NCBI GenBank assembly: GCA_038206475.1
Contig: JBBRAU010000001.1
Location: 141,732-205,731 of the forward strand
Length of the DNA stretch: 64,000 nt
From: Patescibacteria group bacterium
Lineage (GTDB): Bacteria > Patescibacteriota > UBA1384 > JBBRAU01
Direction of reading: 5' to 3'
The notes under the pieces were generated by a model, which saw nothing but the letters and a program-made list of their open reading frames with translations, was not told the DNA's origin and searched no databases. How positions within the stretch are numbered: position 1 is the stretch's first letter; every line of letters starts with the position of its first letter. Below, one piece after another: positions 31,743 through 62,691 of the stretch. The position numbers and the translations under genes were made by a program.

Positions 31743-31820
31743 GCCAGGGTAGCTCAGTTGGTTAGAGCGCGTCACTCATAACGACGAGGTTCGTGGGTTC
31801 GATCCCCACCCCTGGCACCA
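31743..31820 (+). tRNA. tRNA with CAU anticodon, elongator type (tRNA-Met, or tRNA-Ile2 if lysidinylated)
   Basis: GCCAGGG-TA-GCTC-AGTTGGTTA-GAGC-G-CGTCA-CTCATAA-CGACG-AGGTTC-GTGGG-TTCGATC-CCCAC-CCCTGGC-A-CCA. C11:G24 is elongator-type and 1-72 is paired. Confidence 0.75.
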
Positions 31821-44083: not shown

Positions 44084-45049
44084 ATGCCACGGCTGCGTCG
44101 TAATCCTTTAACCGGCGACTGGATTATCCTCTCGCCCGAGCGAGCCAAGCGGCCGGAAGAGTACGTCCGTCCGCGCCAGCAGGCTATTTCCGACCCGGCA
44201 GATTGTCCATTTTGCCCAACCGGGCCAGCCTATGCCACGAAGATTGCTGAAACCGAGCATACCTACGTTATCCCTAACCGTTACCCAGCCTTTGTGCCTG
44301 ATGACCAGGTCGTCAGTGATGGCGGCCGCCTGGCGGAAAGTGGTTTGGCGCTTGGCCGGCATGAGGTGATCGTGCGTAAATCGCACACTGAACATTTATT
44401 TGATCTGCCGCCCTCGAGGCTGCATGAGTTGCTTCAGGTATCGGCTAGCCGTCTGGTCAGCGCTAAGCGTGATCCGCGTTTAGAGTATGGCCTGGTTTTT
44501 CACAACCACGGCCATGAAGCCGGCAGCTCAGTTGCCCATCCGCACAGTCAGATGATCGCGGCTGCCTTTGTGCCACCACGGCTGCAAAATCTCATTCGCG
44601 AGCAGAAAATGTTTTACGCTGAGCACCAGCACTGTCTGCTCTGCCGGCTCTGGCAAGCGGAAGCCGAATCGAGGGTACGGGTATTAGCGGAGTCACAGCA
44701 CGCTATCGCCTTTTTGCCTTATGCCAGTCGCTATCCGTATGAAATCTGGTTGGTGCCAAAGCGCCATGCCGCTCATTTTGAGGAAATTGCTGAACATGAG
44801 CTAGCCGGTGTGGCTAGCCTGTTGCACATCGTCTTTAAAACCTTGAAAAGTGCCCTCGATGATCCGCCCATCAATTGGGCAGTTTACAGCAAGCCATTTC
44901 GGCCGCGCATCGGCAACGAAGCCTGGCATTGGTATTTAGAAATTATGCCGCGGCTTGAACACTTCGGTGGCTTTGAGCTGGCCACTGGCGCCATTATCAA
45001 TACGCTCTCGCCGGAGCATGCCACGACCTATTTGCGCAGCAAACGCTAG
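44084..45049 (+). CDS. galT: galactose-1-phosphate uridylyltransferase-like HIT-family nucleotidyltransferase
   Basis: Zn site CPFCP and HIT-like AHPHSQMIA (HxHxQ). Confidence 0.65.
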   Translation: MPRLRRNPLTGDWIILSPERAKRPEEYVRPRQQAISDPADCPFCPTGPAYATKIAETEHTYVIPNRYPAFVPDDQVVSDGGRLAESGLALGRHEVIVRKSHTEHLFDLPPSRLHELLQVSASRLVSAKRDPRLEYGLVFHNHGHEAGSSVAHPHSQMIAAAFVPPRLQNLIREQKMFYAEHQHCLLCRLWQAEAESRVRVLAESQHAIAFLPYASRYPYEIWLVPKRHAAHFEEIAEHELAGVASLLHIVFKTLKSALDDPPINWAVYSKPFRPRIGNEAWHWYLEIMPRLEHFGGFELATGAIINTLSPEHATTYLRSKR

Positions 45050-45756
45050 CTCTGTGGGGTGACGAGGTGCAGGCTGGCCAGGGTGTTGGCAAAGTCGGCA
45101 TCTAACCTCGCGGCGTTGAGCGTGGACAGCGTGTCGGTGAGAGTGACTGACAGCACCTGGCCGCCGATCCAAAAGAAAGCCGCTTGCTCATAGCCGGCGC
45201 TTGTTTTCTTAAACCCAAGCCCGGATAGTCCGGCCGCTTTGACCGTTGCTGCCAGGTAATTCTGGCTCTGTTGGCGCAAGCGGACATCCGGCACGTCAGT
45301 CAGTTTGTCGACCGGATATTTCTTCAGGATTGCCGTGAGCATCATCGCCTCAGCGGCTTGGCGGTCAAGCAAAACGATTGACTCTAAGCTGCCAGCACCG
45401 CGGTTTTGGTCAGCCGTGTATGGCTGAAAGTGGCCAGGGTAGCGCAAACTAAAGTAGTGACCCAAAAAATCGCCACTGGCGGGCGTGGCGCTGGCTGACG
45501 GCGCTGCCGACGGTGGCGCCGAGGTGACAATAACACCTTCAGCACTGGCGCTAAATTTGTAGCGCAGCACAATCACAAGAATCATCAGCGCCACCGATAG
45601 CCAGAGGGTGGTATAGCGATGGTGGTGAGTGTCTGGCGGTGCGGCTTGAGGTTTGGCCAACGGTTCTGCTGCCACGGAAGCAGCGTCAGGCAAAATAAAT
45701 GGCGCCGGATGGGCTCCAGGTTGGACACTGTCCAGTAATCGTAGCGGTTGCCCCAT
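45046..45756 (-). CDS. membrane-anchored secreted protein with Ala/Pro/Ser linker; distant member of paralog family A
   Basis: TM (LWLSVALMILVIVL), linker SAPPSAAPSASATPAS, and a domain opening FSLRYPGHF (compare FSFSYPSTWK and YRVSYPTTWKK in the other two). Confidence 0.5.
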   Translation of the reverse strand: MGQPLRLLDSVQPGAHPAPFILPDAASVAAEPLAKPQAAPPDTHHHRYTTLWLSVALMILVIVLRYKFSASAEGVIVTSAPPSAAPSASATPASGDFLGHYFSLRYPGHFQPYTADQNRGAGSLESIVLLDRQAAEAMMLTAILKKYPVDKLTDVPDVRLRQQSQNYLAATVKAAGLSGLGFKKTSAGYEQAAFFWIGGQVLSVTLTDTLSTLNAARLDADFANTLASLHLVTPQS

Positions 45757-45766: not shown

Positions 45767-46105
45767 TTACTTGGGCGCCTGTACCGTCACCGGCGCAAAC
45801 TGAATAATTTTATCGCTGCTTGGTCGCCACAAGAGCGCCTGTTTGCTGTTTGAAAAAATGAGCAGCCGGTCACCTGAGGCAGCGCGGGCAAAAAATGACT
45901 CGTGCGGCAGCGCGGCTAAATCAGAGACGACCGCTAAAGTCGGTGCTTCGTCTGGTAAATCCGCCATGGTTTTTAGGTGAGAGACAATCTCGGCGGCTGA
46001 GGTTGGTGTAGCTGATGGCTTAGTTGCGGTTCGCGTACGGCGCCAAAACAAACCTACCGCAATCAGTATTGCCACCACAACAAGAAGGGCCAATAAGCGT
46101 TTCAT
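45767..46105 (-). CDS. small membrane-anchored hypothetical protein
   Basis: MKRLLALLVVVAILIAVGLFW TM followed by a ~90-aa domain. ATG 46105 is preferred over the track start at 46168. Confidence 0.45.
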   Translation of the reverse strand: MKRLLALLVVVAILIAVGLFWRRTRTATKPSATPTSAAEIVSHLKTMADLPDEAPTLAVVSDLAALPHESFFARAASGDRLLIFSNSKQALLWRPSSDKIIQFAPVTVQAPK

Positions 46106-46166
46106 GCTCTTAGTGTACCACGGTTTTTCAGCGCCACGACGCGACGGGCTCTGATATACTGGGTGC

Positions 46167-47237
46167 ATGCGTCGATTTTTGGTCCTAACGGCAATACTTT
46201 TGGCTTGGCCAGGGTTGGTGTTGGCCGCTTCACCGGCGAGCGGCCACTATCAGCTGCAGGCTTTTGGTTTTGGCAGCGGCGGTGTGGATAATGCCACCTC
46301 CGGCAGTTACGCCTTAAATGGCATTACCGGCGAAACGAGCGGCGACCAGTTGTCATCTGGCAGTTATAAGGTGGGCTCGGGTCTTATCTTCACTCAGCAA
46401 GCCGATGTGCCGGATGCGCCAACCGTCACCAACCCCGCCAGTTACTACGACAAGCTGCACTTTGTCCTGAATCCGGGTCCAAACGCCTCAGACGCTACCT
46501 TTGCCATAGCGGCTTCAACCGACGGTTTTGTGACGACGAAATACGTCAAGGCTGACCACACCGTCGGCAGCAGCTTGGCGCTCGCCGACTACCAAACCTA
46601 CGTCAACTGGAACAGCGCAAGTGGCTTTGACGTTATTGGCCTGTCCTCTGGCAGCACGTACACATTTAAGGTGAAGGCCATGCACGGAAAATTCACCGAA
46701 ACCGGTTACGGTCCAAGTGCCTCGGTGGCCACGGTTGATCCGTCGCTGGTCTTTGATATTGACGTCGCGGCCACCGACACGGAAACGGCCAGTCCGTACA
46801 TCGCTGACCTTGGCGATTTAACTGCCGGCAGCGTCACCACCGGGGCTGACCGCGTCTGGGTGGACTTGGAGACCAATGCTGACTCTGGTGCGACGGTCTA
46901 TATTTCCTCAGCTAACACCGGTCTGTCGAGTACGTCCGCTGCCCACACCATCGCTTCGTCAAGCACTGATTTAGCCGTGGCCAGCGAAGGCTACGGCGCC
47001 CAGGGCGCCTCGGCCACCCAGTCGGCCGGCGGCCCGCTCAGTTTACTCTCGCCGTACGATGGCAGCGTCTCCAACGTCGGCATTATAGACAGTACACTCA
47101 GAACCATTTTTCGCTCGGCTGGGCCAATTACCGCCGGTCGCGGCTCGTTGCTGTTGAAGGCCAAGATTGCTGCCACTACGCCGGCGGCCGATGATTACAC
47201 CGATAGCCTAACCTTGGTGGCCGCCGGTGTCTATTGA
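46167..47237 (+). CDS. secreted Thr/Ser/Gly/Ala-rich beta-type surface protein, WxL-domain-like (tentative)
   Basis: Signal peptide MRRFLVLTAILLAWPGLVLA. C-terminal motif TTPAADDYTDSLTLVAAGVY is paralogous to the next gene's C-terminus and resembles, as I recall it, the WxL-domain C-terminal signature (YTGTLTWTL.DAP). Confidence 0.5.
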   Translation: MRRFLVLTAILLAWPGLVLAASPASGHYQLQAFGFGSGGVDNATSGSYALNGITGETSGDQLSSGSYKVGSGLIFTQQADVPDAPTVTNPASYYDKLHFVLNPGPNASDATFAIAASTDGFVTTKYVKADHTVGSSLALADYQTYVNWNSASGFDVIGLSSGSTYTFKVKAMHGKFTETGYGPSASVATVDPSLVFDIDVAATDTETASPYIADLGDLTAGSVTTGADRVWVDLETNADSGATVYISSANTGLSSTSAAHTIASSSTDLAVASEGYGAQGASATQSAGGPLSLLSPYDGSVSNVGIIDSTLRTIFRSAGPITAGRGSLLLKAKIAATTPAADDYTDSLTLVAAGVY

Positions 47238-47350
47238 GCCAGCGTTTTTCCTAGTAATTGACAGTGGCATGCAGACCAATAGATACTGTTTTTAGAAGCG
47301 ATTTGTGCGCTCTAGCTGTAACACATAGCGTAATAGAGAAGGATGGACAG

Positions 47351-48586
47351 ATGAAGGACAAAGTAGGTCTACGACCGAAGGTTGCAAGGTTCTGGCTACA
47401 AGGCAGGTCATTGCAATCTCTGGGCGCAAGCACTTGTCGTTTCGGGCAATGGTTTTCTGGCAACACGGAGCGTCTTATCCGATCTCGTCTCGGCGGTTTG
47501 TTGGCCATCTTTGTGCTCTTGATTGGCATGATGCCTATTAGGCGTACCCAAGCTGCCAATCTGTCCGCGGCCTCTATTCAGTTTTACCGCATGCAAACAT
47601 CAGTTCTCGCTAGTTCAACCAATAAAATTCTGGTCATATTTAAACCTGCCACCGCCGTGACTGGTCCGGGGTATGTGAAGCTGACCTTTGCAGGCACCGG
47701 CACGATAGGTGCGGCCAGCTACGGAGTGAATGTTACGCCGGCCAACGTCACGACATCGGTCACCGGTTTGCCCTCAACCTACAATATTGCTGGTAGCGCC
47801 GTAGCGGTCACGGCGGCTCCGCTTTCTGCGGCGGTCGCCGACAGTATCTCGGGCGCTACGGCCACCTTTAAGATGAGCACCACTCCCGGCGGTGACCTAG
47901 CCGCTGGCACTGTTTACGGCTTCTTTATTACCGGCGGCATTACTAATCCATCTTCCAGCGGTCAAATGGTCAATAAAATTGAAACCCTAACCTCGGGCTC
48001 AGCCATTGTTGACAGCCAACGGGTGGCCACGCGCGTGCTCACTAGCGATCAAATTACGGTGACGGCTAAGGTCCCAGCCACTTTCAACTTCACCCTATCA
48101 TCAACCACCGTTGATTTGTCCGACTTGGATCCTTCCTCGGTGGTGTCGGCTGCGTCACCGCCGACGGTCACGATTACCACGAATGCCACCCGCGGGTGGA
48201 CGGCCTGGCTGAAGGATTCAAACTCGCCGGCGGCTCTACACTCGGCCTCGGCCAGCTATGATATTGCCACCGCGGGTACAATCGATGCCACGCCGACCAC
48301 GCTATCGATTGGTTCAGACGGCTACGTGCTGGACGTTGATAACTCAACATCCGGCGGCAAAACGGGCACCGGCACCATCACTGTTGCCGCTGAGTACAAT
48401 GGCGCAACCACCTCGGCTGGCGGCACCTTATCGAACAGCTATCAAGAAATTGCCAAAAGTTCGGGCACGGCTGGTGGTACTGGCGACGTGCTAACGCTGA
48501 CCCCGCGGGCCACCATTTCAGCCATCACGCCAGCCGCCGATGACTACACCGACACCTGGACGGTTATCGGTGCGCCGACGTTCTAA
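47351..48586 (+). CDS. secreted beta-type surface protein, WxL-domain-like (tentative), paralog of 46167
   Basis: Hydrophobic signal region LGGLLAIFVLLIGMM. GWTAWLKD motif. C-terminal ITPAADDYTDTWTVIGAPTF. AAGGATGG precedes ATG 47351 (ORF track 47258). Confidence 0.5.
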   Translation: MKDKVGLRPKVARFWLQGRSLQSLGASTCRFGQWFSGNTERLIRSRLGGLLAIFVLLIGMMPIRRTQAANLSAASIQFYRMQTSVLASSTNKILVIFKPATAVTGPGYVKLTFAGTGTIGAASYGVNVTPANVTTSVTGLPSTYNIAGSAVAVTAAPLSAAVADSISGATATFKMSTTPGGDLAAGTVYGFFITGGITNPSSSGQMVNKIETLTSGSAIVDSQRVATRVLTSDQITVTAKVPATFNFTLSSTTVDLSDLDPSSVVSAASPPTVTITTNATRGWTAWLKDSNSPAALHSASASYDIATAGTIDATPTTLSIGSDGYVLDVDNSTSGGKTGTGTITVAAEYNGATTSAGGTLSNSYQEIAKSSGTAGGTGDVLTLTPRATISAITPAADDYTDTWTVIGAPTF

Positions 48587-49682
48587 ACTCCTGTGCGGGG
48601 TGGTTCTGCTTGTTGGCATGTGGCCCGCGGTTTTGGTGCATGCGGCTTCACCTAGTCCACTCGCCTCACCGAATATTCCAATTGACCAAACCAGTCAATC
48701 GGCTCAAGGTAATCCGCTCAATTTGACGGTGTCGCCAACAGTATTGACCCTGTCGGCCAAGCCGGGGAACACGTTTTCAACGGACATTCGGGTAAAGAAC
48801 AACGGCATCGCGCCGGAGGCTTTGCGTCTTGGCGTCATTAAATTTGCCGCTAACAATACGAGCGGCGAACCGGTGCTGCAGTCTCGGCAAAAAAATGACG
48901 ACTTTTTGAACTGGGTTAGCTTTTCAGCCCCAGTCTTCTCGGCTCAACCCGGCGAGTGGAAAACCATTACCGCCACCTTCAAGTTGCCCACCACCGCCGC
49001 ATTTGGTTATTACTATGCCATTGTTGTGACTAGGCAGAGCCAGCCGATTGATACCGGCAGCCGCCAGATTGGCGTGATTGGCGCGCCGTCGCTGTTGGTG
49101 CTTTTAGCGGTTGAAGCGCCCGGCGCCAAACGCGAAGCCCAGATGGCGAGCTTTTACGCCTCGCGCCAGTGGTATGAGTTCTTGCCGGCTCAGTTTTCGG
49201 TCGAGATTCAGAATAGTGGCAACGTGCACGTGGCGCCACACGGCGATATTTTTGTGAGCCGCGGCGGCCAAGATGGAGCCGACGGTGGCCGCGACATTGC
49301 AACCTTGCCCATCAATGATGATCAGGGTCAAATTCTGCCGAGTTCAAAACGAACATTTCAGGCTAGCTGGACCGCCGGCTTCCCCAGATTTGAGCCACGA
49401 CAGGTTGATGGTCAACCGGTGCTGGACAAGCAGGGCAATCTCAAAATGCACCTGGTGTGGCACTGGAACGATATTGGCCAATTCCGGTTTGGTCGCTACA
49501 CCGCGCATTTAACGCTTGTCTATGACAACGGCAATCAGGATGTGCCAATTGAGGCCACGCTTAATTTCTGGATCATCCCCTGGCGCCTCTTGCTGGCCGC
49601 CGTGTTTATTGCGGCCGGGCTGATTTGGAGTCTATTCTCGCTACTGCGCCGTTTCAAGCGACTCTTCCGCCACGCCGACTAA
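48540..49682 (+). CDS. cell-surface protein with CscA-like architecture (signal peptide, ~280-aa beta-rich ectodomain, C-terminal TM plus basic tail; DUF916/DUF3324-like)
   Basis: Signal LLCGVVLLVGMWPAVLVHA, a beta-rich ectodomain, C-terminal TM WRLLLAAVFIAAGLIWSLFSLL then RRFKRLFRHAD. The architecture is that of the DUF916/DUF3324 partners of WxL proteins in Firmicutes csc loci. The ectodomain itself was not matched to a known motif. Confidence 0.45.
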   Translation: MTTPTPGRLSVRRRSKLLCGVVLLVGMWPAVLVHAASPSPLASPNIPIDQTSQSAQGNPLNLTVSPTVLTLSAKPGNTFSTDIRVKNNGIAPEALRLGVIKFAANNTSGEPVLQSRQKNDDFLNWVSFSAPVFSAQPGEWKTITATFKLPTTAAFGYYYAIVVTRQSQPIDTGSRQIGVIGAPSLLVLLAVEAPGAKREAQMASFYASRQWYEFLPAQFSVEIQNSGNVHVAPHGDIFVSRGGQDGADGGRDIATLPINDDQGQILPSSKRTFQASWTAGFPRFEPRQVDGQPVLDKQGNLKMHLVWHWNDIGQFRFGRYTAHLTLVYDNGNQDVPIEATLNFWIIPWRLLLAAVFIAAGLIWSLFSLLRRFKRLFRHAD

Positions 49683-49700
49683 ATATGCGACAGTAGCGTT

Positions 49701-50615
49701 ATGCGACGACTTCTGCTTTTTTTGGTGCCCCTTTTGGCATGGCCCGCTACTGCCCAGGCTGCCGGCAATGGCGGCTTGGTGCTGTCGCCGGCTTATCAAG
49801 AGGTCAGTTTAGAGACAGGCGTGAGTGCCAAGCGTGTTGTTTTGACGCTGACCAACCAAGCCCAGTCGACAGCAAACCTCAATGTCTCGGCAGTTGATTT
49901 TGGCAACCTCGACAATCATGGTGGTCTGGCCTTCGCCGGTCAACCCGGCATTACGCTCGACAACAGCCATTTGCTGGTTAATTGGCTCGCCTTTGACCGA
50001 ACGACGGTACAAATTAACCCAGGCAAAAGCCAACAACTGACAGTCAGTATCAACAACCGCGATGATCTCACCGCCGGTGGCCATTATGCCGCGGTCTTTC
50101 TCACCGCGTCGGGCAACTATGGCAGCGCCACGCTCAGTTTCACGCCGGCTCTGGCCACCTTGCTCTATGTCAATAAAGTAGGCGCCAGCCAAGTTGGTCT
50201 GGAGCTGCAGTCGATGGCCACAAACTCCGGTTGGAGAACGGTGCCTAGCCAGTTAACGCTTAACTTTCACAATACCGGTGGAATTCACCTAAAGCCGCGC
50301 GGGACTGTTGAGTTAACCGACCCACTTGGCCACCTCTCTAGCCGCGGCATCATCAATGAATCCTCAGCCATTATTCTGCCAGCAGCGGTCCGCCACTACT
50401 CGGTGACGCTGCTCAGTCGGCGTCGCCCCATCTGGCCTGGCCGCTACACCCTCTCGGTGCACTACCGCTACGACGGCCGAGACGACACGACAACCGTCAC
50501 CCGAAGCATTTGGTACCTTGGTTCAGTTGGGCTGGCGGGTCTAGGTCTGGTCGGGGTAGTTTTTATCATAATAATTGTAAGACTAAAGAGAAATAGGTAC
50601 AGGCGTACACTATAA
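49701..50615 (+). CDS. second CscA-like cell-surface protein (signal peptide, beta-rich ectodomain, C-terminal TM plus basic tail)
   Basis: Signal LLLFLVPLLAWPATAQA. C-terminal TM LGSVGLAGLGLVGVVFIIIIV then RLKRNRYRRTL. Confidence 0.45.
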   Translation: MRRLLLFLVPLLAWPATAQAAGNGGLVLSPAYQEVSLETGVSAKRVVLTLTNQAQSTANLNVSAVDFGNLDNHGGLAFAGQPGITLDNSHLLVNWLAFDRTTVQINPGKSQQLTVSINNRDDLTAGGHYAAVFLTASGNYGSATLSFTPALATLLYVNKVGASQVGLELQSMATNSGWRTVPSQLTLNFHNTGGIHLKPRGTVELTDPLGHLSSRGIINESSAIILPAAVRHYSVTLLSRRRPIWPGRYTLSVHYRYDGRDDTTTVTRSIWYLGSVGLAGLGLVGVVFIIIIVRLKRNRYRRTL

Positions 50616-50706
50616 ATAATAAGACATATTACCATCCATAATTGCCCCCGAACAGCGGCCAAATCAGCTGGTATTAAAGTAACGCTCCGCTATACTGAAG
50701 ACAAGG

Positions 50707-53700
50707 ATGGGTAAACTCTTATCGCGGCTATGGGCAAGCGTATTACTCGCAACCATTGTTGTGAGTGTTTCTGGCGTCGCAACCGTCCCAACCGCCCAGG
50801 CAGCCGCCGGTATTCTGCATCAAATTAATTTTCAAGGCAAAGTTGTTAAATCTGACGGCACCAATGTCGCCAACGGCAGCTACGCCTTTGTTTTTAAGCT
50901 CTACGATAATTCGGCTGCCGGAACTCAGCTCGGCAATACGGAAACCCAAAGCCTAACCGTTACCGACGGCATCTTCCGCACAACGTTTTCGGATACGGCC
51001 GCAACTGGCCTACTCGAGAACGTTAATTTTAATTCTGACTCGCTCTACCTCGGGGTTAATTTCAACGGCGACGGCGAAATGACGCCGCGAGTGCGCTTTA
51101 CCTCAGTCCCCTACGCTTTCAATGCCGAGAAGGTAAACGGCCTAGCCGTGACCAATAATGCCGGCAATCCGCTGGCGGCGGGCTCAGCGCTCAAATTGCC
51201 AGACGGAAAAATAGTCGAATTTTCTGGCAGCAATAACCTAACCCTAACGACGACCGGGAATACGGTCGCGACCTTGCCGTCCGGCACGATCACCCTGGCC
51301 GACTTGAGCAGCACACAAGTCTTTAGCGGTGCCAAAACGTTTTCAGACTTGACCGTCTCCGACACCAACATCGCCCTGTCTGGTGCCTCAACCATCTTCA
51401 CCGGCACCGGAGCAATAACAGTCACGCCGGGCGGCGGCGGTGCTTTGAGCTTAAACTCGGCCGGAACCGGCAATACTGCTATTGGCAATGGCACCGGTAC
51501 CTTCCAACTCGACTCAAATACGCTTGACATCTCAACCGCCGGTGCCTTAAGTGGTGTCACCGGTATTGCCAGCTCCGGCGCCTACACCCAAACCGGTGTC
51601 AGCGCCAACACTTTCTCTGGGGCGACCACCTTCTCGGCGGCTGGTACGGCTGTATCGGTCACCAACGATGTTGGCATCGGCGGCGTTCTCCAAGTTGGTT
51701 CAACCACACCAACCACTTACTCCAGGCTCGGCACCAATACCACTGGTCATTCGCTTGGCGCGGCCTCAGACTTATTGGTCTCGGGCAATATTGAAGTTGA
51801 TGGCTCAGCCTTCTTTGACGGCACCGTGAGCTATGGCGGTGGTGCCAACTTTACGTTGACCACCAGCGCAAACAACATAACAACCGTTGCCGTTTCAACC
51901 ACCCAAACCGCAACCGGCGCCTTAACCGCCTCAACTGGTCTGTCCAGTCTCTGGCAGAGCAGTGCCGTAGTGGCTGGTGTTGGCGTTAGTCAAACCGCCT
52001 ACGGTAACTACACCACGGCTACTAAAACCGGGGCTGACACCGCTACCGGCACTTACAGCCTGTATGGCGATTACGCCAGCGTCAGCAATACCGGCTCGAC
52101 GAACGCCGGTACCAAAAATACTTACGGCGCGGCCTACTCGGCCACTGGCGATACGGCTGGTGCCTCAACTGCAACCGGACTGACAGTGACCGCCTCTGGT
52201 GCTGACACCAATCGTGGCCTTGAGATAACCGGCCCCACCTCAGCCGCCAACAACTATGCCCTGTACTCATCAGCCGCCGCTCAGTCGGTCATGGCTGGCA
52301 ACTTGCGGATTGGCTCAACTACCGCGCCAAACGTGGCACTGGATGTCACCGGCGCCGGCACCTTCTCTTCAACGCTGACGGCTTCAAATGGTCTCACGGT
52401 TTCAGCTGGTGGTGCCACGGTCGGTGGCAGCTCAACCGTCACTGGCACTTTGGGCATTTCTTCCTATCTCCAGGTTGGCTCGGTCACTGGTACCACCTAT
52501 TCGCGACTGGGCACGGGAGCAACTAACCACAGTCTGGCTGGCGCTGACAGTTTATTTGTCACTGGCAACTTGGAGGTTGACGGGTCGACCTATTACGATG
52601 GTGGCGTCACCTACGGCTCTGGCACCACCTATGACTCAACCGTCACCTTCAACTCCGATGTAGACTACGCCTTGGCTGGCACTGAAAACGTGACAATCAA
52701 CAATAGTAGCTACTCGACGCCATCAGCTGGCCTGCTCGATATTGCCGCAACTAGCAGCACAGATGACGTTCGCGTATTGCAAGCGGCGCTTACCTACTCT
52801 GCCACAGGGGCCGCGACTGGCTACACCAGCCGCAGCAGTTTTGCTAGCTCAGCCGTAGTGGCCGGAGCCGGCGTTTCCCAAACCGGCTATGCCAATTACA
52901 ACACCGCCACAAAAACCGGAGCAGATACGGCTACCGGCACCTATACGCTTTATGGTAGCTACAATACCGCTTCTAATACTGGCTCATCAGCCGGGACGAA
53001 AGTGACTATCGGCGGCGCCTTTACCGCTGTCGGTGATACTGGCGGCACCTCAACCGCCAAAGGCCTTACCGTCACTGCCTCAGGCGCCGATACCAACTAC
53101 GGTATTGAAATTACCGGTCCAACCTCGGCTACCAATAACTATGCCATCTACTCCAGTGCGGCGGCGCAATCGGCCATTGCTGGCAACGTGCGGGTTGGCT
53201 CAACCACGGCGCCTACGGTGGCATTAGATGTCACCGGCGCGGGATTGATTTCCTCAACCTTAGGCGTTTCTTCGACACTGACGGCCTCTAATGGTTTCAT
53301 CCAAACCACCGGCGCATTGAGTTTGACAGCTAGCTCTGGCTCATCGGCCATTACCCAAAGTGTTTTTGCCATTACTTCAACAGTCACCTCGGGCAACGGC
53401 TTCTCGGTGGCCTCGTCAACGGTTGACTCAGGCAACGTGGTGAGTCTCAATTCAACCAGCACGGCTGCCGCCTCTAACTCCCAAACCGTCTTAAACGTCG
53501 CCACCTCCGGCGCCAACGGTGCCTCAACTCAAACCACCTATGGCGCCAAAATTGCTAACACGCACACTGGCACTTCTTCCACTAATGTTGGTGGCTACTT
53601 CAGCGCCTCCGGCGGCACCAACAACTATGCCGCTATTTTTGACCAAGGCAATGTTGGTGTTGGCAACCCCACACCTTCACAGGCACTGAGCGTGACAGGG

Positions 53701-56700
53701 AGAGTTGCCATTGCTCCAAGCGGTACTGTCTCTGATGAACAGTACAACGGCAATTTGGTTATCACTAAACCAGTGTCCAGTGGACAGTACGTTAACCTAA
53801 TACGAGCTGGCACCTATGGATGGTCCCTGGGCTACGCCTACAACACCAGTACTTTCGCTATAGGCACTATTCAGGGAATAGACTCCAACTTTACTGCCCC
53901 TGCGCTGCAACTAGGAGCAAATGGAAACTTAACCATAACCGGATCCGTAACTGGCACTCAGTTAGTCTCGAATATTGCCACTGGCACCGCGCCCTTGCTC
54001 ATTACCTCAACCACCGTTGTGCCAAACCTTAACGTCTCACAGTTACTTGGTTCCACCTGGGCCGCCCCCGGGGCCATAGGTTCCACCACTCCCAACACCG
54101 GTGCTTTCACCACCCTGACCACCACCGGTACCATTAACTCCCAGGCCATCTCAGCCACCGCCGCCTTAACCGGCACCCTCTCCGTTGCCTCCACCTTAAC
54201 TGCCTCCAGTGGCTTGACTCAGACCACGGGAGCGCTCAATTTAACCGCCACCAGCGGCGCGCTGGCTATCTCTGGCTTAACCTCCGCCGCCCTGGCCACC
54301 GCCGCCTTAACCTTAAACACCACCGGTACTGGTACCACTCAAATTGGCAATGGCACCGGTACCTTCCAACTCGACTCAAATACGCTTGACATCTCAACGG
54401 CCGGTGCCTTAAGTGGTGTCACCGGTATTGCCAGCTCCGGCGCCTACACCCAAACCGGTGTCAGCGCCAATACCCTCACCGGCGCAACCTCCCTCACTGC
54501 CGCCGGCACCGCCCTTGCCGTTACCAACAACGCCACGATCGGCGGTACACTGACTGTTGGCGCCGTCTCGTCTGCCTCTGGTGCCGGTATTTTTGATTCG
54601 CTGAGCGTGGGTGGCGGTTACGGTTCAACCGGCGTCAGTATCTCGAATACCGGCAATATCCAAGCCAATGGCACGCTTACGGTGGATTCGACAATCGGCA
54701 TTGGTGGCGCTCCAGCGAGCTCAGCCGGGCTGCTGACCACCGGTGCTATCACCGCCACCACCAGTCAGTATGGCGTTGAGGCGGCCAACACCTTTAGCTC
54801 AGCGGCCACCACCGGTGCCAGCTTCTACGCTCTACCGCAGACGGCGGCAGCGGCTTATACCGTCACCAGTCTGTATAATTACCTCGCCTCTAATGCCAGC
54901 CTTGGCGTGGGCAGTGCTGTCACTAACCAATATGGTTTCTACAGCCCCGACTTAACTAGCGGCAGTAATAACTACGGTTTCTATGCCAATATTTCCTCGG
55001 GGACTAATAAATACGCCTTCTATGGTGGCGGCAATGCCCCGAGTTACTTTGGCGGCAACGTCGGTATTGGCACCGCGTCACCGAGTAACAAACTAACCAC
55101 TGTAGACACTGCAGGCGGTGTTCTTTGGCCAGGCATTCGTATCAAGAATGCCGCCAATTCCGTCAATACTGGTGCGGCCATAGAATTCAGTGTCCTGAAC
55201 GGTAGCAATGCGGAAACGGTGATGGGTCAGATAGGCGCCGCAGTTAACTCGGGGACGGCTGGTAGCGAGTTTGGTTACCTTACATTTCGGGCCAGTGTAG
55301 GTGGTACGCCGACAGAGGTGCTTCGTGTCTGGCCGGGGGCTGCGAGTACTACCCAGACCTCTATTACGCAAAGCACCGGTTCATCAGGACTGAATGTCAT
55401 CATTCCCTCCTATGTTGCAAATTCATACACCCCCGGCCTCTTCTGGAGCACGGCGGATAACAATCCATCAAAGCCGAAGGCGGGCATTTATACTCAGCTT
55501 ACGGCAACGGGGACCTATCTTTTGCTGGGCACTTCAAATTCATATGCAACAGGCATTACCAGCAACGTTATTATCGATCCAACCGGCAATGTCACTGGCG
55601 GCACCTACAACGGCCAGACCATCTCCAGTGCCGCCAGTTTCACCGGCACGGTTGGGGTGGCCAACTCGGTCACCGCACCAACGGTTAACGTTGGCACCGC
55701 CGGTGCTTCAACCGGAGTACTCAACCTGTCAGGGGCGACCTCTGGTACCATCTCCATCAAAGGTCAGGCCGCCGCTGGCAGCTACAACTTTAACTTACCA
55801 ACCACGGTTGGTTCTTCCGGTTTCGTGCTTACTTCAGCGGGCGGGGGAGTCACCGCCATGACCTGGACTGATCCGGCTGGTCTGACGGCAGGGACTGCCA
55901 CCAGCGTGCTCTTCTCCGGTGTGCAAGCCGCCACCAACACCGGCCAGGCACTGCTGGTTGGTAATGGCTCCTCATTAGGTGTGACCGGCACCGGCACCAT
56001 CAACGCCACCACCCTGCTTGGTTCTACTTGGGCTATCCCCGGGGCCATAGGTTCCACCACTCCCAACACCGGTGCTTTCACTACGGTCGCTTCAACCGGT
56101 ATTGCCTCATCGGGTAGCTATACCCAGACCGGAAGCGGTGCCAATACGTTCACTGGCGCCTCATCATTCACTGCCGCCGGTACGGCGCTAACAGTTAATA
56201 ATAGTGCTCAGATTTCCGGTGTAGTGGGGGTGGGTGGTGCTACTTATTCAAGTACGGGTCTAATCATCAGAAACACAAACTTAGCAACCGCTGATCAATA
56301 TGGTGCCTATATTTCGCCCACCTTTAACTCTTCTGCTACTCACGGAGCCGGCGGCGTTGTGTCTTCCCCCTCTACTAGTGCAGCTGCGTTTACGATTCCC
56401 ATACTCTATGACTACTATGCAGGCATTGTTTCAATTGGTGCTGGAAGCAGCGTCACTACTCAGTATGGCTACTTTGCGGAAGACCTGACTGGTGCCACCA
56501 ATAGCTACGGATACTTCAGTAACATGTCCTCGGGGGCTAATAAGTACGCTTTCTATGGGGCAGGGACGGCGGCTAGCGTCTTTCTGGGCAATGTTGGTGT
56601 TGGCACCAGCGGACCTTTGGCCAAACTACATGTCTCATCGGGCGACAGTGCAGTAATTAGCTTAGTTTCAGGTGTTAGCAAGGGTATCCGCTTTGGTGCT

Positions 56701-58923
56701 AACTCCTCGACGGCCATCATTAATGGTGTTGATAACACTGGTACAGGTTCATATCAGCCCCTGTCGCTTGGCGGTTCTGAGTTGCGGTTCAACAACTCCG
56801 CCGTGGAAGTGGCCAGGCTTAATTCCAGTGGTAATCTGGGCGTTGGTGCTACGACCACTATTTCCGCTCGGCTGCACTCTCTTGCCACCACCGAGCAGCT
56901 GCGCTTGGGCTATGATGCCGCCAACTACGCCGCCTTTACCGTCTCCTCCGGCGGCAACCTGACGCTGGCACCAACTGGCGGCACGACGAACGCTGCGGGT
57001 GCCCTGGCCGTGACTACTTCAATTACCGCACCAACCCTCTACGGCGGTGCTGCCTCCGGCGGCAATCTCACCCTCTCCTCTACCAGCAACGCTACGAAGG
57101 GTAAATTACTGATGGGCGGCTCTGCCTTTGTGGAATCAGCTAACCAGCTTGGCCTTGGCACTACCGCCCCAGACGCAAAGCTATCTATCGCCATAGCTCA
57201 GGCAGGTACCCAGTACATTCAGGGCCAGTTTGCCGGAACCAATACCGCTTCCGATCTTGGTAAGTTCCGGGTAGGTGGGGGCGAGATTGGTACTGGCGGC
57301 GTTGACCGGGCCTACCTTGAGGTGCGCCAGACCTGGAACGGTGCTACTACTGATACTGAACTAGGCCTCTATTCCACCAAGGGCGGGATTGGCGGCGGCG
57401 AGCGGCTGACAGTGCTGGGGAGCGGAAACGTCGGTATCGGTAATACTAACCCTGCCGCCTTACTCAGCGTGGGTAGCGGCGACAAATTACAAGTAGGCGC
57501 AACCGGCAACCTCAAACTCACCAACGTCACCACCGGCTCCAACACCAGTTCCCCCACCATCAACTTGGAAGGCAACGGCTTCACCGCTGGCCCCACCAAC
57601 ACCACCGGCTCCTTCTCCATGCAGACCATCCCCAGCAGTGCCACGGCTGCCAAGCTGATGATCGCCGTTACTGGCTTTGCCACCCAGAACGTTGCCTCAC
57701 TGACTGAAGCCGGTGCCTGGATTACCAAAGGCGCCCAAACCGCTAGCGGTACGCCGGACGTAGCTGAGTTTATTGGCACCACGGCCGAAGTGACTGCCGG
57801 AGACGTGGTAGTAGCGGCCGCTGGCCAGAACGGCAACGAGAACTTTGTAGCCACCCGCAACAGTGTACGCGGCAACCCCAGCGTCATTGGCGCCATTGCC
57901 GACGGTACCTCCGGCGTGCAGATCAATTCGTACGGCCAGTACAACGACTTCACCAATGGCACGCTCAGCAATAAGGGCAAACCGATGACTATTGCCGGCC
58001 GTATTCCGGTCAAGGTGACAACCCGCGGCGGCAGCCAACCCATTCTCCGTGGCGACCTCCTTATGGCCTCCGACAAGCCCGGTTACGCCGAGAAGTATGA
58101 TCCCGCCTCCGGCCCTTTGGTCGGCATCATCGGCGTTGCTCTAGACGAATTGCCTGCGGGCGACGGTAAGGTTTTTGCCCAGATCCAAATCTCTCGTGTC
58201 AGCGCTTCTCAGGCGCTTCTCGGCACAGCGCAGGATCTCGGTATCACTACGCTTACTGTTTCCAGCTCAGCTCTGTTCAAAGGAGACTTGAACGTGATTG
58301 GCAATGTGACGATCGGCGGCAGTTTGACTATTGGTAGCTCAAGTACGTCTAAGCTGGTTTTTAGGGTGCTTGGTCAGTCGCAATTTGGCAGCGACACCGA
58401 CAACCTGGCGATTAGTGAAAAGGGCCAGCTAACCCGCCATGGCCAGGCCACCACTAACCAGACTTTAGAGAACCTAGGCAAAGTGAGTGCAGCCAGCCCA
58501 ACCAATGTTTTGCCGCTGACTACGCTAATAGGCGCGGCTACTATTTCGTCTAGCCTGAGCCAGCCTGATGTGCCGCGCAACGTAACCTTGACAGCCATCG
58601 GCCTACGCGGCCTGGTCACGGTCAAGGGCATCTTGGCCGACAGCACCGAGGCGAGTGAGCAATTTAATGTCGTGGCTGACGGAATGATGCTTGGTCAAAA
58701 AGCCTTCCTGTCCATTAATAACGTGTCGGTGCCGGGTGCTGGGCAAATAAGTCTGGGTACTGGCCAAAAGCTGGGTCTGTCTAATAGTTTGCACGGTCAA
58801 AATGGTGTCTACTTGACACAAAAAGACGCCGCCCGAGTTACAGCGCAAGTGGATAGCCAAAACAGCACCGTTGACCTGGGACCATTAAATGGTGAAGCCA
58901 TTAAAATTTGGTACCGCTACTAA
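50707..58923 (+). CDS. giant secreted repeat protein (2738 aa) with tail-fibre-like Gly/Thr/Ser/Ala-rich beta repeats
   Basis: Signal peptide MGKLLSRLWASVLLATIVVSVSGVATVPTAQA. Repeated modules NNYA(I/L)YSSAAAQS..AGN.R.GSTTAP.VALDVTGAG and NKYAFYG.G.A.S.F.GNVG(I/V)GT..P..KL.V. Large internal duplications: near-identical ~130-bp DNA at 51481-51610 and 54346-54478, and ~85-bp at 54041-54125 and 56021-56100. No C-terminal TM or LPXTG. Confidence 0.75.
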   Translation: MGKLLSRLWASVLLATIVVSVSGVATVPTAQAAAGILHQINFQGKVVKSDGTNVANGSYAFVFKLYDNSAAGTQLGNTETQSLTVTDGIFRTTFSDTAATGLLENVNFNSDSLYLGVNFNGDGEMTPRVRFTSVPYAFNAEKVNGLAVTNNAGNPLAAGSALKLPDGKIVEFSGSNNLTLTTTGNTVATLPSGTITLADLSSTQVFSGAKTFSDLTVSDTNIALSGASTIFTGTGAITVTPGGGGALSLNSAGTGNTAIGNGTGTFQLDSNTLDISTAGALSGVTGIASSGAYTQTGVSANTFSGATTFSAAGTAVSVTNDVGIGGVLQVGSTTPTTYSRLGTNTTGHSLGAASDLLVSGNIEVDGSAFFDGTVSYGGGANFTLTTSANNITTVAVSTTQTATGALTASTGLSSLWQSSAVVAGVGVSQTAYGNYTTATKTGADTATGTYSLYGDYASVSNTGSTNAGTKNTYGAAYSATGDTAGASTATGLTVTASGADTNRGLEITGPTSAANNYALYSSAAAQSVMAGNLRIGSTTAPNVALDVTGAGTFSSTLTASNGLTVSAGGATVGGSSTVTGTLGISSYLQVGSVTGTTYSRLGTGATNHSLAGADSLFVTGNLEVDGSTYYDGGVTYGSGTTYDSTVTFNSDVDYALAGTENVTINNSSYSTPSAGLLDIAATSSTDDVRVLQAALTYSATGAATGYTSRSSFASSAVVAGAGVSQTGYANYNTATKTGADTATGTYTLYGSYNTASNTGSSAGTKVTIGGAFTAVGDTGGTSTAKGLTVTASGADTNYGIEITGPTSATNNYAIYSSAAAQSAIAGNVRVGSTTAPTVALDVTGAGLISSTLGVSSTLTASNGFIQTTGALSLTASSGSSAITQSVFAITSTVTSGNGFSVASSTVDSGNVVSLNSTSTAAASNSQTVLNVATSGANGASTQTTYGAKIANTHTGTSSTNVGGYFSASGGTNNYAAIFDQGNVGVGNPTPSQALSVTGRVAIAPSGTVSDEQYNGNLVITKPVSSGQYVNLIRAGTYGWSLGYAYNTSTFAIGTIQGIDSNFTAPALQLGANGNLTITGSVTGTQLVSNIATGTAPLLITSTTVVPNLNVSQLLGSTWAAPGAIGSTTPNTGAFTTLTTTGTINSQAISATAALTGTLSVASTLTASSGLTQTTGALNLTATSGALAISGLTSAALATAALTLNTTGTGTTQIGNGTGTFQLDSNTLDISTAGALSGVTGIASSGAYTQTGVSANTLTGATSLTAAGTALAVTNNATIGGTLTVGAVSSASGAGIFDSLSVGGGYGSTGVSISNTGNIQANGTLTVDSTIGIGGAPASSAGLLTTGAITATTSQYGVEAANTFSSAATTGASFYALPQTAAAAYTVTSLYNYLASNASLGVGSAVTNQYGFYSPDLTSGSNNYGFYANISSGTNKYAFYGGGNAPSYFGGNVGIGTASPSNKLTTVDTAGGVLWPGIRIKNAANSVNTGAAIEFSVLNGSNAETVMGQIGAAVNSGTAGSEFGYLTFRASVGGTPTEVLRVWPGAASTTQTSITQSTGSSGLNVIIPSYVANSYTPGLFWSTADNNPSKPKAGIYTQLTATGTYLLLGTSNSYATGITSNVIIDPTGNVTGGTYNGQTISSAASFTGTVGVANSVTAPTVNVGTAGASTGVLNLSGATSGTISIKGQAAAGSYNFNLPTTVGSSGFVLTSAGGGVTAMTWTDPAGLTAGTATSVLFSGVQAATNTGQALLVGNGSSLGVTGTGTINATTLLGSTWAIPGAIGSTTPNTGAFTTVASTGIASSGSYTQTGSGANTFTGASSFTAAGTALTVNNSAQISGVVGVGGATYSSTGLIIRNTNLATADQYGAYISPTFNSSATHGAGGVVSSPSTSAAAFTIPILYDYYAGIVSIGAGSSVTTQYGYFAEDLTGATNSYGYFSNMSSGANKYAFYGAGTAASVFLGNVGVGTSGPLAKLHVSSGDSAVISLVSGVSKGIRFGANSSTAIINGVDNTGTGSYQPLSLGGSELRFNNSAVEVARLNSSGNLGVGATTTISARLHSLATTEQLRLGYDAANYAAFTVSSGGNLTLAPTGGTTNAAGALAVTTSITAPTLYGGAASGGNLTLSSTSNATKGKLLMGGSAFVESANQLGLGTTAPDAKLSIAIAQAGTQYIQGQFAGTNTASDLGKFRVGGGEIGTGGVDRAYLEVRQTWNGATTDTELGLYSTKGGIGGGERLTVLGSGNVGIGNTNPAALLSVGSGDKLQVGATGNLKLTNVTTGSNTSSPTINLEGNGFTAGPTNTTGSFSMQTIPSSATAAKLMIAVTGFATQNVASLTEAGAWITKGAQTASGTPDVAEFIGTTAEVTAGDVVVAAAGQNGNENFVATRNSVRGNPSVIGAIADGTSGVQINSYGQYNDFTNGTLSNKGKPMTIAGRIPVKVTTRGGSQPILRGDLLMASDKPGYAEKYDPASGPLVGIIGVALDELPAGDGKVFAQIQISRVSASQALLGTAQDLGITTLTVSSSALFKGDLNVIGNVTIGGSLTIGSSSTSKLVFRVLGQSQFGSDTDNLAISEKGQLTRHGQATTNQTLENLGKVSAASPTNVLPLTTLIGAATISSSLSQPDVPRNVTLTAIGLRGLVTVKGILADSTEASEQFNVVADGMMLGQKAFLSINNVSVPGAGQISLGTGQKLGLSNSLHGQNGVYLTQKDAARVTAQVDSQNSTVDLGPLNGEAIKIWYRY

Positions 58924-59154: not shown

Positions 59155-59697
59155 GTGTTCAAGCAGCAAAAGCTCGGTTTTACCTTAATTGAGCTGTTAG
59201 TGGTGATTGGCATTATCGCCATCCTGACCGCTCTTTTGGTGCCGACCATTACCAACGCCCGCAAGCGCTCGACGGTCAGCAAAGTGGTTGATGTGTTGGA
59301 GCGCGAGTGCCAGGCCGCCAAAAATTATATGGTCGGTGGTGGCACAGCCAACAGCTATGCTTCAACGCTGGTAGATCGTAGCGGTTTACCTGGCCCGAAC
59401 GCAGTAGCTGGTGCAACCAACTACTGGGCGCTTGGCAGTGTCACTTCGGCGAATTACGGCGGCAGTTTTTCGGCATTGCCCGCCCCCGGCGCCACAACTC
59501 CGCTGGCAATTGGGCTTTCATGGCAACGGGACAGCGCTACCATTGGTACTGGCTACAACGATATAGCGATCGGTCGAACTCGCCTTGGGAAATATGGTGC
59601 AGGGTTGTACTGTGTGACCGATGCCGATGCCTCAGCACCCATTCGATACTATGCCGTTGACAGCACCACTACTGCCACCCTCCTCTATTCCGGCTGA
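59155..59697 (+). CDS. type IV pilin-like protein, paralog 4
   Basis: AAAAGGAG 4 nt before GTG 59155 gives MFKQQKLG then [30 protein letters not shown]. The ORF track extends upstream to 58963. Confidence 0.85.
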   Translation: MFKQQKLGFTLIELLVVIGIIAILTALLVPTITNARKRSTVSKVVDVLERECQAAKNYMVGGGTANSYASTLVDRSGLPGPNAVAGATNYWALGSVTSANYGGSFSALPAPGATTPLAIGLSWQRDSATIGTGYNDIAIGRTRLGKYGAGLYCVTDADASAPIRYYAVDSTTTATLLYSG

Positions 59698-59789: not shown

Positions 59790-60080
59790 ATGTGCTATAA
59801 TAATGGCATGATCCGTAATTATCTGTGGTTCAAACCACGCCCGCTGGCTGATTTGGCCGATGTTGAGAGCATTCACCATGTTCTCCGCTATGGCAGTTTA
59901 GAGGAGGTGGCCGAGTTGCGCACCCAGCTGGGTCTCGCACGACTAAGGCAGGTTTTTTTGAGCGCACCGCAGAAGATTTACACCCCGGCGGCGCTGCACT
60001 TTATCAGCCAGTACGTGCTAAAAATTGACACGCCAGTAAACGACCGTGCCTACCTCACCACTGCGCCTCGACATTCTTGA
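59790..60080 (+). CDS. small protein upstream of, and overlapping, the AbiEii-like gene (putative cognate antitoxin/AbiEi-like fragment)
   Basis: 96 aa. Overlaps the next gene by 35 nt, which suggests translational coupling. The antitoxin call is by position only. Confidence 0.35.
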   Translation: MCYNNGMIRNYLWFKPRPLADLADVESIHHVLRYGSLEEVAELRTQLGLARLRQVFLSAPQKIYTPAALHFISQYVLKIDTPVNDRAYLTTAPRHS

Positions 60081-61988: not shown

Positions 61989-62038
61989 TTTTATAATTAA
62001 ACCATAAATTAATCAAAATTGGAAGGTTCAGCAGGCGA

Positions 62039-62425
62039 TTATCTGGAAACGCTGTGAGTTTGTAGCCAGCCGGCAATCATTTTTTCATCTACCTCACTAT
62101 TTGCAGCTTGGAGTGCGAGTATAATTGCTTGGTCGGTGCCGAAGTCGACACGTTGCCCATTGCGCTCCAGAAAAATAGCGCAAGCGGCAATGGCAGTGCG
62201 TTTATTGCCGTCGAGAAAAGCGCGATTATTGACAAGTGAATGCAGTAACACGGCCGCTTTGTGCCAAACGGTCGGATAGGCTTCTTGGCCAGTAAACGCG
62301 GCTTGTGGTCGGGCTACCGCTGAGTCAACCAGACCAAAATCACGCACACCATCACCGCCACCTGTCTGACAAACAATTAAGGCGTGTAATCGGGCTACCT
62401 CCGCAGCGGTGAGGCAGTGCATCAC
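62039..62425 (-). CDS. doc: Doc/Fic-family toxin (death-on-curing)
   Basis: Fic motif HSLVNNRAFLDGNKRTA. 128 aa. Immediately downstream of the phd-like gene. Confidence 0.8.
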   Translation of the reverse strand: MMHCLTAAEVARLHALIVCQTGGGDGVRDFGLVDSAVARPQAAFTGQEAYPTVWHKAAVLLHSLVNNRAFLDGNKRTAIAACAIFLERNGQRVDFGTDQAIILALQAANSEVDEKMIAGWLQTHSVSR

Positions 62426-62652: not shown

Positions 62653-62691
62653 AGTTTATTTGTACATATTGTACAAAATACTGTTAGGCGG

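Follow-up and report, generated by a model that had tools for sequence, protein, structure and literature searches.

Attachment to other microbes is the way of life of most Patescibacteria in culture, and little is known of how the hosts are recognized and held. What, then, is the function of a secreted protein of 2738 residues that is encoded on the chromosome of such an organism? The gene lies in a stretch of 64,000 nucleotides (the window) from a Patescibacteria group bacterium (assembly GCA_038206475.1, contig JBBRAU010000001.1, positions 141,732 to 205,731), in which an uninterrupted open reading frame (ORF) of 2738 codons and 8.2 kb runs from an ATG at 50707 to 58923 on the plus strand. 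We consider it probable that its product is a trimeric, phage-tail-fibre-like surface fibre for host contact and a core member of a gene cluster that resembles the Pam pilus cluster of the candidate phyla radiation (CPR). As judged from alignments, the plan of the protein family is reasonably supported: a conserved N-terminal domain is followed by a variable repeat fibre, a conserved domain of the intramolecular chaperone (IMC) type and a swappable tip. From this architecture we infer the function, which makes the giant protein a strong candidate for a CPR host-contact device.

The giant protein and its family

A protein identical to the product of 50707-58923 is on record in NCBI. Thr, Gly, Ala and Ser make up 54% of its residues and cysteines are absent. 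Its only hydrophobic stretch (residues 4-22) belongs to the N-terminal signal peptide, and A32 and G35, which lie at and just behind the probable cleavage site, are invariant in the alignment of the N-terminal family. An initial annotation, made from the letters alone, had described a secreted protein of just this length with a signal peptide but with neither a transmembrane (TM) helix nor a sortase signal, and this description holds. A C-terminal LPXTG motif followed by a hydrophobic segment was not found; the single candidate, LPQTA at residue 1376, is internal, and the reading as a sortase-anchored protein was dropped for these reasons. Neither the whole protein nor any of ten slices of 300 residues gave a usable match in Pfam, PHROG, NCBIfam or PDB sequences, and the slices had no Pfam match even at E <= 10. 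A scan for promoters and terminators gave none that exceeded the shuffled expectation. The GC skew is strongly negative (-0.11 to -0.13) from 50001 to 58000 of the window and is confined to the giant gene; it probably comes from the C-rich codons chosen for Thr, Ala and Gly in the repeats.

A search of a collection of 5.8 billion proteins yielded 127 relatives of 1500-4700 residues, and where the source gives a name the relatives are Patescibacteria, for example Moranbacteria. In about 115 of 126 giant homologues the similarity is limited to residues 1-260 of the query, at 43-55% identity, and always involves the homologue's own N terminus. An alignment of this domain was then used to scan one genome per species (185,579 species), in which 195 loci encode it. 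The closest locus is 56% identical to that of the window; an identical locus was not found among these species representatives. All 79 loci that were retrieved come from metagenome-assembled genomes (MAGs), and the informative titles name Patescibacteria lineages. The gene cluster is otherwise confined to genomes named as Patescibacteria, but many TPA_asm MAG records with it bear the titles 'uncultured Bdellovibrionales', 'Gammaproteobacteria' or 'Pseudomonadales'; probably their bins are mislabelled.

The core of the N-terminal domain is modelled by AlphaFold2 (AF2) as a beta-sandwich of about 5-6 predicted strands. Foldseek found only generic Ig-like or macroglobulin-like matches to the domain (E > 0.04) and no significant match to a pilin, and the phage collections contain no match to it. 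Considering its position and conservation, we propose that it is a docking or anchoring module.

A gp12-like domain ahead of a variable tip

An exhaustive HMMER search with the last 479 residues collected 416 proteins and resolved two independent domains, X and Y, which are unrelated according to hhalign (probability 5.9%). Of the 126 giant homologues, 93 have X, invariably at a distance of 230-490 residues from the C terminus. It is sharply conserved in the motifs TPD(I/V)AE.I and GRVPVKV...GD.L..S..PG.A.K, and the invariant positions of the alignment include P39, D40 and E43. The AF2 model of X (pTM 0.67) was matched by Foldseek, with a probability of 1.0, to gp12 of phage phi29 (3suc, 3gqh; E 5e-3 to 1e-2, TM-score 0.45-0.54) and to trimeric phage capsid decoration proteins; the fold is apparently that of gp12. 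In BFVD, 34 entries match the model at E <= 1e-3. The best of them (1.2e-8) is unnamed, entries called 'Preneck appendage protein' match at 4.6e-8 and 3.7e-7, and the matches include 'Preneck appendage protein (barrel)', tail proteins and an 'intramolecular chaperone auto-processing domain' protein. PF11962 (Peptidase_G2, the IMC autoproteolytic cleavage domain) indeed overlaps X in the homologues P0044, P0086 and P0063, with 25.2, 26.3 and 30.6 bits at a gathering score of 25. The X profile gave a negative result against PDB sequences, and a scan of viral contigs for X gave pattern matches only, with no confirmed relative.

When X is aligned with residues 651-854 of gp12 (hhalign, E 1.7e-4), P2350-D2351-V-A-E2354 falls on S691-D692-F-A-E695. 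S691/D692 together with E695 reportedly form the autocleavage site of gp12 (Xiang et al. 2009). X has the conserved Asp and Glu of such a site as D2351 and E2354, and 82 of the 100 X domains in giant homologues retain the D-h-(A/S)-E motif, as do 105 of 117 in other proteins. Because of the fold, the motif and the transitivity within the family, and not because of a direct Pfam match, it is reasonably supported that X is a phi29-gp12-like intramolecular chaperone and autocleavage domain, with cleavage being predicted. The C-terminal domain of gp12 is an autochaperone of trimerization that is cleaved off after folding (PMC3357383).

Six relatives (P0119, P0039, P0045, P0008, P0021 and P0023) have tandem X domains that are 170-320 residues apart, which is hard to reconcile with a simple role of X that ends with its being discarded after folding. 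Some other relatives have an S74 domain in place of X; in P0040 it is internal as well (residues 1517-1562 of 2266).

The region past X is the lineage-variable, swappable part of the family. In the protein of the window it ends in domain Y, which occurs in none of the 126 giant homologues. In other giants a Peptidase_M23 domain (P0091, P0094, P0108) or an H_lectin domain (P0030) is found in this region. Elsewhere, Y closes smaller proteins, some of which have N termini matching minor-tail or tailspike PHROGs as well as beta-helix domains, and a stand-alone Y homologue of 182 residues (QXN68005.1; 5866-6414) is encoded directly after the major capsid gene of Microcystis phage Mwe-Yong1. This position is typical of head decoration or fibre proteins, and Y may be a general phage surface-display domain. 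Y had no match among PDB sequences or, by profile, among PHROGs, and a scan of viral contigs with P0155 found nothing.

A phage-fibre module among old internal repeats

The initial annotation had noticed a likeness to phage tail fibres, and this likeness turned out to be homology. A tblastn search of phages with the module around NKYAFYG...GNVGIGT hit 14 cyanophage records at E 1e-11. The match in phage S-TIM5 falls in gp129 (YP_007006096.1), which is annotated as 'tail fiber protein', and pairwise blastp of residues 1318-1481 with gp129 gave 31% identity at E 9e-17 (31-34% over 130-180 residues across the searches). Together with the gp12-like domain X this bears out the phage part of that annotation. 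Its 'fibrous adhesin' was right in that the protein is modular, secreted and fibre-like; that it is an adhesin is what we would infer from these properties. The annotation had no word on the conserved N-terminal domain, on the chaperone-type domain X or on the genomic context, in which most of the meaning lies.

The three peptide motifs listed in the initial annotation were all recovered by regular expressions, in the numbers given there. NNYA[IL]YSS...ALDVTGAG is found at residues 515-551 and 810-846, NKYAFYG...GNVG[IV]GT..P..KL at 1434-1463 and 1945-1974 with a degenerate copy at 972-994, and IGNGTGTFQLDS...TGVSAN exactly twice, at 259-301 and 1213-1255; in total the protein has five GNVGIGT-like motifs. 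Comparison of the protein with itself added further pairs of modules with 41-77% identity: 421-540 with 717-835 (77%), 361-540 with 621-835 (44-77%), 246-360 with 1200-1322 (60%) and with 1752-1857 (41%), 1321-1440 with 1831-1951 (47%), and 1082-1192 with 1737-1846 (41%). In the sequence as assembled, repetition of this kind is far beyond chance.

At the level of DNA, the picture differs from the recent intragenic duplication that had been proposed. The near-identity of the first pair of tracts is real (127 of 128 nucleotides), although the second tract had been placed at 54346-54478, which is off by 3-8 nt. The second pair had been called nearly identical as well, which is an overstatement, since it is 85% identical over 85 nt and only a core of 45 nt is perfect. 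The 128-nt pair lies within a repeat of 242 nt that is 82% identical overall, and in the flanks of the tract identity drops sharply to about 60%. A fresh duplication was dropped as explanation because an old, diverged module surrounds the island of identity. Since the flanks of the 99% tract fall so abruptly, the near-identity looks like the result of gene conversion between old, diverged repeats and points to a recent homogenization of at least one pair. The internal repeats would then be old module duplications that may mediate in-frame changes in length: both spacings, 2862 and 1971 nt, are divisible by three, and therefore unequal recombination would give shorter variants in frame.

The gene is part of a Pam-like cluster

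Troman et al. 2026 (bioRxiv 10.64898/2026.03.03.709456) solved the PamA/PamB pili of Ca. Mycosynbacter amalyticus, are the source of the PamT model, and described membrane-anchored PapD/FimC-like chaperones with C-terminal TM helices. They also reported that a 'tail fibre-like protein' is consistently encoded beside the pam operon across CPR lineages; the mechanism by which Pam pili contact the host is unknown according to the same preprint.

The window carries a similar cluster upstream of the giant gene (46167-50615), made up of two pilin-like and two chaperone-like genes. Homologues of these genes are encoded in three loci with giant homologues (phmmer E 1e-15 to 1e-39), and of the 54 loci whose upstream sequence extends over 6 kb or more, 53 contain pilin-like as well as chaperone-like genes. 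The usual order is pilin, pilin, chaperone, chaperone, in some cases a further chaperone, then a small membrane protein and the giant gene. Because both gene families are found in 53 of the 54 informative loci, the giant protein appears to be a core component of the Pam-like locus and not a chance neighbour; conversely, a tail fibre-like gene in the neighbourhood, as described for pam operons, is seen in the same 53 of 54.

The two pilin-like proteins share a C-terminal motif ...TPAADDYTD.(L/W)T(L/V)..., of which DYTD..T.. is strand-like. The type 2 pilin-like ORF has a hydrophobic, signal-like segment at its residues 73-91, and the true start probably lies downstream of the listed TTG. As in the Pam system, the chaperone-like proteins are two in number, and each combines a signal peptide with a TM helix at the C terminus; the first of them is annotated elsewhere with 370 residues, which moves its start to 48570. 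The four secreted proteins directly upstream of the giant gene have no Pfam match at E <= 1e-3. The ORF 46167-47237 matches the NCBIfam model CPR_pilus_PamT (NF058579) weakly, at E 2e-7 and 30.7 bits with a cut-off of 240 and in the N-terminal 75 residues only, and therefore does not qualify as PamT by the curated model; members of the family from Saccharibacteria score likewise. Among the matches of the chaperone family there was no protein named PamC or PamD. Homologues of the chaperone-like proteins have weak matches to PF06030 (WxLIP_PGBD/DUF916) and PF06280 (fn3_5), which hints that the Pam-like loci of CPR bacteria and the WxL clusters of Firmicutes may be evolutionarily related.

Two genes for single-pass membrane proteins complete the cluster. 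In most related loci the family of 45046-45756 is encoded directly upstream of the giant gene, typically at a distance of 700-900 nt, and the family of the smaller one (45767-46168) is usually found downstream of it; in the window both are present but inverted.

A working model and its alternatives

From these parts a sequence of events can be drawn up. The chain of 2738 residues would be exported in the unfolded state by Sec, for which the sequence offers a signal peptide. The C-terminal region with X would leave the cell last, and X would nucleate trimerization, as assumed here because phage IMC domains work in this way. Once X has trimerized, the repeat modules rich in Thr, Gly, Ala and Ser would zip up into a long beta-structured fibre, and the motif around D2351 and E2354 would probably cut the chain before D2351. 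To judge from its conservation and the synteny, the N-terminal beta-sandwich would hold the fibre at the cell; its partner may be the membrane protein found in synteny, one of the membrane-anchored chaperone-like proteins or the pilus itself. The lineage-variable region past X would be the host-contact end: Y in the organism studied here, M23 or an H-type lectin in relatives. The model predicts a trimer, a cut at P2350/D2351, a host range that depends on the tip and a dependence of the fibre on the syntenic membrane protein.

Several observations speak against this model. The link to Pam is indirect, as the PamT score is far below its cut-off and the M. amalyticus proteins were compared by description only. 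The AF2 model of the N-terminal construct, which would have to extend into the putative fibre, has low confidence past residue 135. As to X, the giant protein itself does not reach the gathering score of PF11962, the hhalign probability to gp12 is only 49%, and the E-values of Foldseek in the PDB are modest (3e-3 to 1e-2). Instead of Ser, the conserved Asp is preceded by Pro in the giant protein and in most cases by Ala in its relatives. Furthermore, X is not at the extreme C terminus: 228 residues follow it here and 230-490 in the 93 homologues. Because the residues past X in relatives include enzymes and lectins that should be functional, either there is no cleavage, or the cleaved piece stays attached, or it is a released effector.

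The last of these possibilities leads to readings of a different kind. Patescibacteria may have adopted the way in which phage tail fibres are assembled, by a C-terminal IMC with autocleavage, for a giant fibre of the Pam-like locus that is exported by Sec and anchored to the cell. Besides helping in folding, an autocleaving X could then be a release switch that frees a swappable module for attack or recognition (Y here, M23 or a lectin elsewhere) at the host surface. We regard this as rather unlikely, but if true, the release-switch family would be the missing determinant of host specificity and attack in epibiotic CPR bacteria. A released effector in the style of polymorphic toxins or Rhs proteins, in which X cleaves itself after assembly or on host contact and sets free X with the tip (Y here, M23 or a lectin elsewhere) as cargo onto the host envelope, is unlikely in our opinion. 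The layout of a conserved N terminus and fibre, a domain of the autoproteolysis type and a variable C terminus of 230-490 residues would suit it, as would the M23 peptidases past X in three homologues, the conserved D-x-A-E cleavage motif and the two tandem X domains of some homologues. However, Y has no enzymatic or toxin signature in searches of Pfam, PDB and PHROG, no immunity-like gene was identified downstream, where a type IV pilin gene comes next, and phages discard the cleaved IMC, which serves them as a folding aid and not as cargo (PMC3357383). The near-universal synteny with pilin-like and chaperone-like genes could also mean that the giant protein is a tip adhesin comparable to PapG or FimH, whose N-terminal domain would be an incomplete Ig-like pilin domain, complemented by a donor strand on a Pam-like pilus. 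The predicted 5-6 strands of the N-terminal core are compatible with that, and the Pam preprint proposes assembly by donor-strand exchange and leaves host recognition open. This explanation is nevertheless improbable, as a fibre built by an IMC would be a trimer with three N-terminal domains, a poor fit to a single-file donor-strand polymer. In addition, the domain has no significant structural match to pilins, the acceptor domain of the Pam pilin is C-terminal, and a similarity in sequence to the pilin-like neighbours was not observed; the jackhmmer match sets of pilins and chaperones had been tabulated without the ORFs overlapping the giant gene.

A generic surface coat, be it S-layer-like or a matrix, would have no specific role in host contact, and the phage-like parts would be mere building blocks. 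A repetitive, Cys-free protein that is rich in small residues and has no recognizable binding domain would agree with it, but strict synteny with pilus genes, conserved terminal domains next to a variable tip, and the lectin and M23 tips of relatives would not, as they point to a device for directed interaction, and we give this reading very little weight. Least credible of all is an artefact, that is, misassembled repeats or the remnant of a phage tail fibre. It is true that repeats of 128 nt with 99% identity can mislead short-read assemblers and that the protein is partly phage-related. Yet the ORF is unbroken for 8.2 kb, the order of the modules is collinear with that of family members, the repeats have diverged flanks and keep the frame, phage collections lack the N-terminal domain, and at least 195 genomes carry a member of the gene family on the chromosome. 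Nothing phage-like flanks the giant gene in the window; its neighbours are pilus-like, glycosyltransferase, toxin-antitoxin and housekeeping genes, and for this reason the prophage remnant was dropped. A trimeric, host-contacting fibre thus remains the reading that we prefer.

Features of the window

Table 1 Coordinates of the giant gene, its parts and the genes of the Pam-like cluster (positions in the window).
Feature	Position	Strand	Basis or remark
Giant gene, 2738-aa secreted fibre protein	50707..58923	+	ORF; identical NCBI record
Sec signal peptide, residues 1-32	50707..50802	+	Probable cleavage AQA/AAG after residue 32; AF2 helix 2-24
Conserved N-terminal family domain, residues 33-260	50803..51486	+	Shared by ~115 giant Patescibacteria proteins
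Beta-sandwich core of N-terminal domain, residues 37-132	50815-51102	+	AF2 pLDDT ~90
Near-identical DNA tract, copy 1, encoding IGNGTGTFQLDS...TGVSAN	51481..51608	+	127/128 identical to 54343-54470
Near-identical DNA tract, copy 2	54343..54470	+	Spacing 2862 nt from copy 1, multiple of 3
Older repeat module, NNYALYSSAAAQS... region	52105..52373 (copy 1), 52990-53258 (copy 2)	+	71% DNA identity over 269 nt
Second DNA repeat, copy 1, LLGSTWAAPGAIGSTTPNTGAFTT	54046..54130	+	85% over 85 nt; perfect 45-nt core 54066-54110
Second DNA repeat, copy 2	56017..56101	+	Core 56037-56081; spacing 1971 nt, multiple of 3
Module homologous to phage tail fibre, residues 1318-1481	54658..55149	+	tblastn; pairwise blastp to S-TIM5 gp129
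Second copy of tail-fibre module, residues 1831-1974	56197-56628	+	47% identity to first
Domain X, residues 2312-2510	57640..58236	+	Predicted scissile bond P2350/D2351 (57754-57759), partner E2354
Domain Y, residues 2595-2738	58489..58920	+	Variable tip of giant protein
Pilin-like secreted protein type 1, C terminus ...TPAADDYTDSLTLVAAGVY	46167..47237	+	Homologues beside giant homologues, E 1e-24 to 1e-39
Pilin-like secreted protein type 2, C terminus ...TPAADDYTDTWTVIGAPTF	47258..48586	+	jackhmmer family in 68 related loci
Chaperone-like protein, signal peptide and C-terminal TM helix	48540..49682	+	Hydrophobic segments 15-33, 341-359
Second chaperone-like protein, signal peptide and C-terminal TM helix	49701..50615	+	Hydrophobic segments; homologues in related loci
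Single-pass membrane protein	45046..45756	-	TM 50-68; family in 58 loci
Small single-pass membrane protein	45767..46168	-	Family usually downstream of giant gene in related loci

A type IV prepilin gene is located directly downstream of the giant gene (59156-59697, plus strand). Its start as listed is too early: with the GTG at 59156, which is supported by an AAGGAG ribosome-binding site, the protein begins with the classic leader MFKQQKLG/FTLIELLVV. Type IV pilin-like ORFs are found near the cluster in 8 related loci. Further downstream follow an AbiEii-type nucleotidyltransferase toxin (PF08843; 60046-60711, plus strand), overlapped by an upstream ORF of 96 residues (59790-60080) that is possibly the antitoxin, and two genes for GT4-family glycosyltransferases (60717-63750, minus strand). 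That the latter glycosylate the Thr/Ser-rich fibre or the pilins may be imagined, but is pure speculation.

The rest of the window is ordinary chromosome with genes for FtsH, PolA, PNPase, RNase J, CTP synthase, LepA, DnaK and ComEC. A second large ORF (26232-28985, plus strand, 917 residues) has weak matches to lamin-tail (LTD) and fibronectin type III domains, which suggests a surface protein. A gene for tRNA-Ile with the anticodon UAU (tat) is present at 24743-24818 on the plus strand; such a tRNA is uncommon in bacteria, where AUA is usually read by a lysidine-modified CAU tRNA. Two divergent tRNA-Met (CAU) genes lie about 250 nt apart (31422-31497, minus strand; 31743-31820, plus strand), one of which could be the initiator or a lysidine-type tRNA-Ile2.

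Comparison with known systems

Among trimeric fibres that are put on the surface of cells, the trimeric autotransporter adhesins such as YadA come to mind, which are likewise long, repetitive, probably trimeric and built on the logic of an adhesin. The giant protein has no Pfam match to a YadA barrel, head or stalk, and its C terminus is Y; the lack of a C-terminal beta-barrel anchor and of any YadA match led us to drop this assignment. The bacteria that carry the family are monoderm-like CPR bacteria, which are not known to have an outer membrane.

Phage proteins are closer. Like the giant protein, phi29 gp12 is an elongated fibre or spike followed by a beta-barrel domain of about 160-200 residues. 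In contrast to gp12, the giant protein is cellular and exported by Sec instead of being part of a virion, it is without the beta-helix enzyme body, and X is not terminal. Moreover, an ATP-dependent release like that of gp12 could not apply outside the cell. The tail fibre protein gp129 of S-TIM5 shares a module of about 165 residues including the ...NNYGF...GTN+...GNVGIGT.P..KL motif, whereas the rest of the two proteins is unrelated and gp129 is encoded in a block of virion genes. The S74 IMC domains (PF13884) of the K1F endosialidase, T5 pb1 and MyRF follow the same logic as C-terminal trimerization chaperones of a triple-beta fibre. They differ from X in belonging to another fold family, and they use Ser-Lys chemistry; no S74 match was found by Pfam in the giant protein, whole or in slices. 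MyRF sets the precedent for a cellular protein in which a domain of this kind is internal and still acts (PMC8326128).

The WxL clusters of Firmicutes (PMC10599100) combine, like the cluster of the window, small and large secreted surface proteins with a membrane-anchored partner, and homologues of the chaperone-like proteins match PF06030, partly weakly, although the window proteins themselves have no match at E <= 1e-3. No WxL domain was detected. The large WxL protein is anchored by its C-terminal WxL domain, whereas the conserved domain of the giant protein is N-terminal.

The closest counterpart is thus the neighbour of the pam operon. Here as there, a large tail-fibre-like gene stands beside genes for secreted pilin-like and TM-anchored chaperone-like proteins, in Patescibacteria and with synteny across lineages. 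In the preprint co-localization is all that is reported for the tail fibre-like gene, with no architecture, domains or role; in turn, the pilin-like and chaperone-like proteins of the window are far below the Pam equivalog thresholds, and the ATP-synthase neighbourhood of the preprint was not seen among the ORFs scanned in the window. Very probably the giant gene belongs to the 'tail fibre-like' group of the preprint, but the curated Pam definitions do not cover its cluster. If this is correct, the present analysis gives that neighbour an anatomy, with a docking domain, a phage-type fibre, a gp12-like chaperone and a swappable tip. In genomes of CPR bacteria the family could be used as a marker of host specificity, and it is a further example of structural modules from phages being put to use in a cellular appendage. 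A giant cellular fibre, exported by Sec, with an internal chaperone domain of the gp12 type and a swappable tip, fixed in a CPR pilus locus, would be a new combination: neither categorically new nor ordinary.

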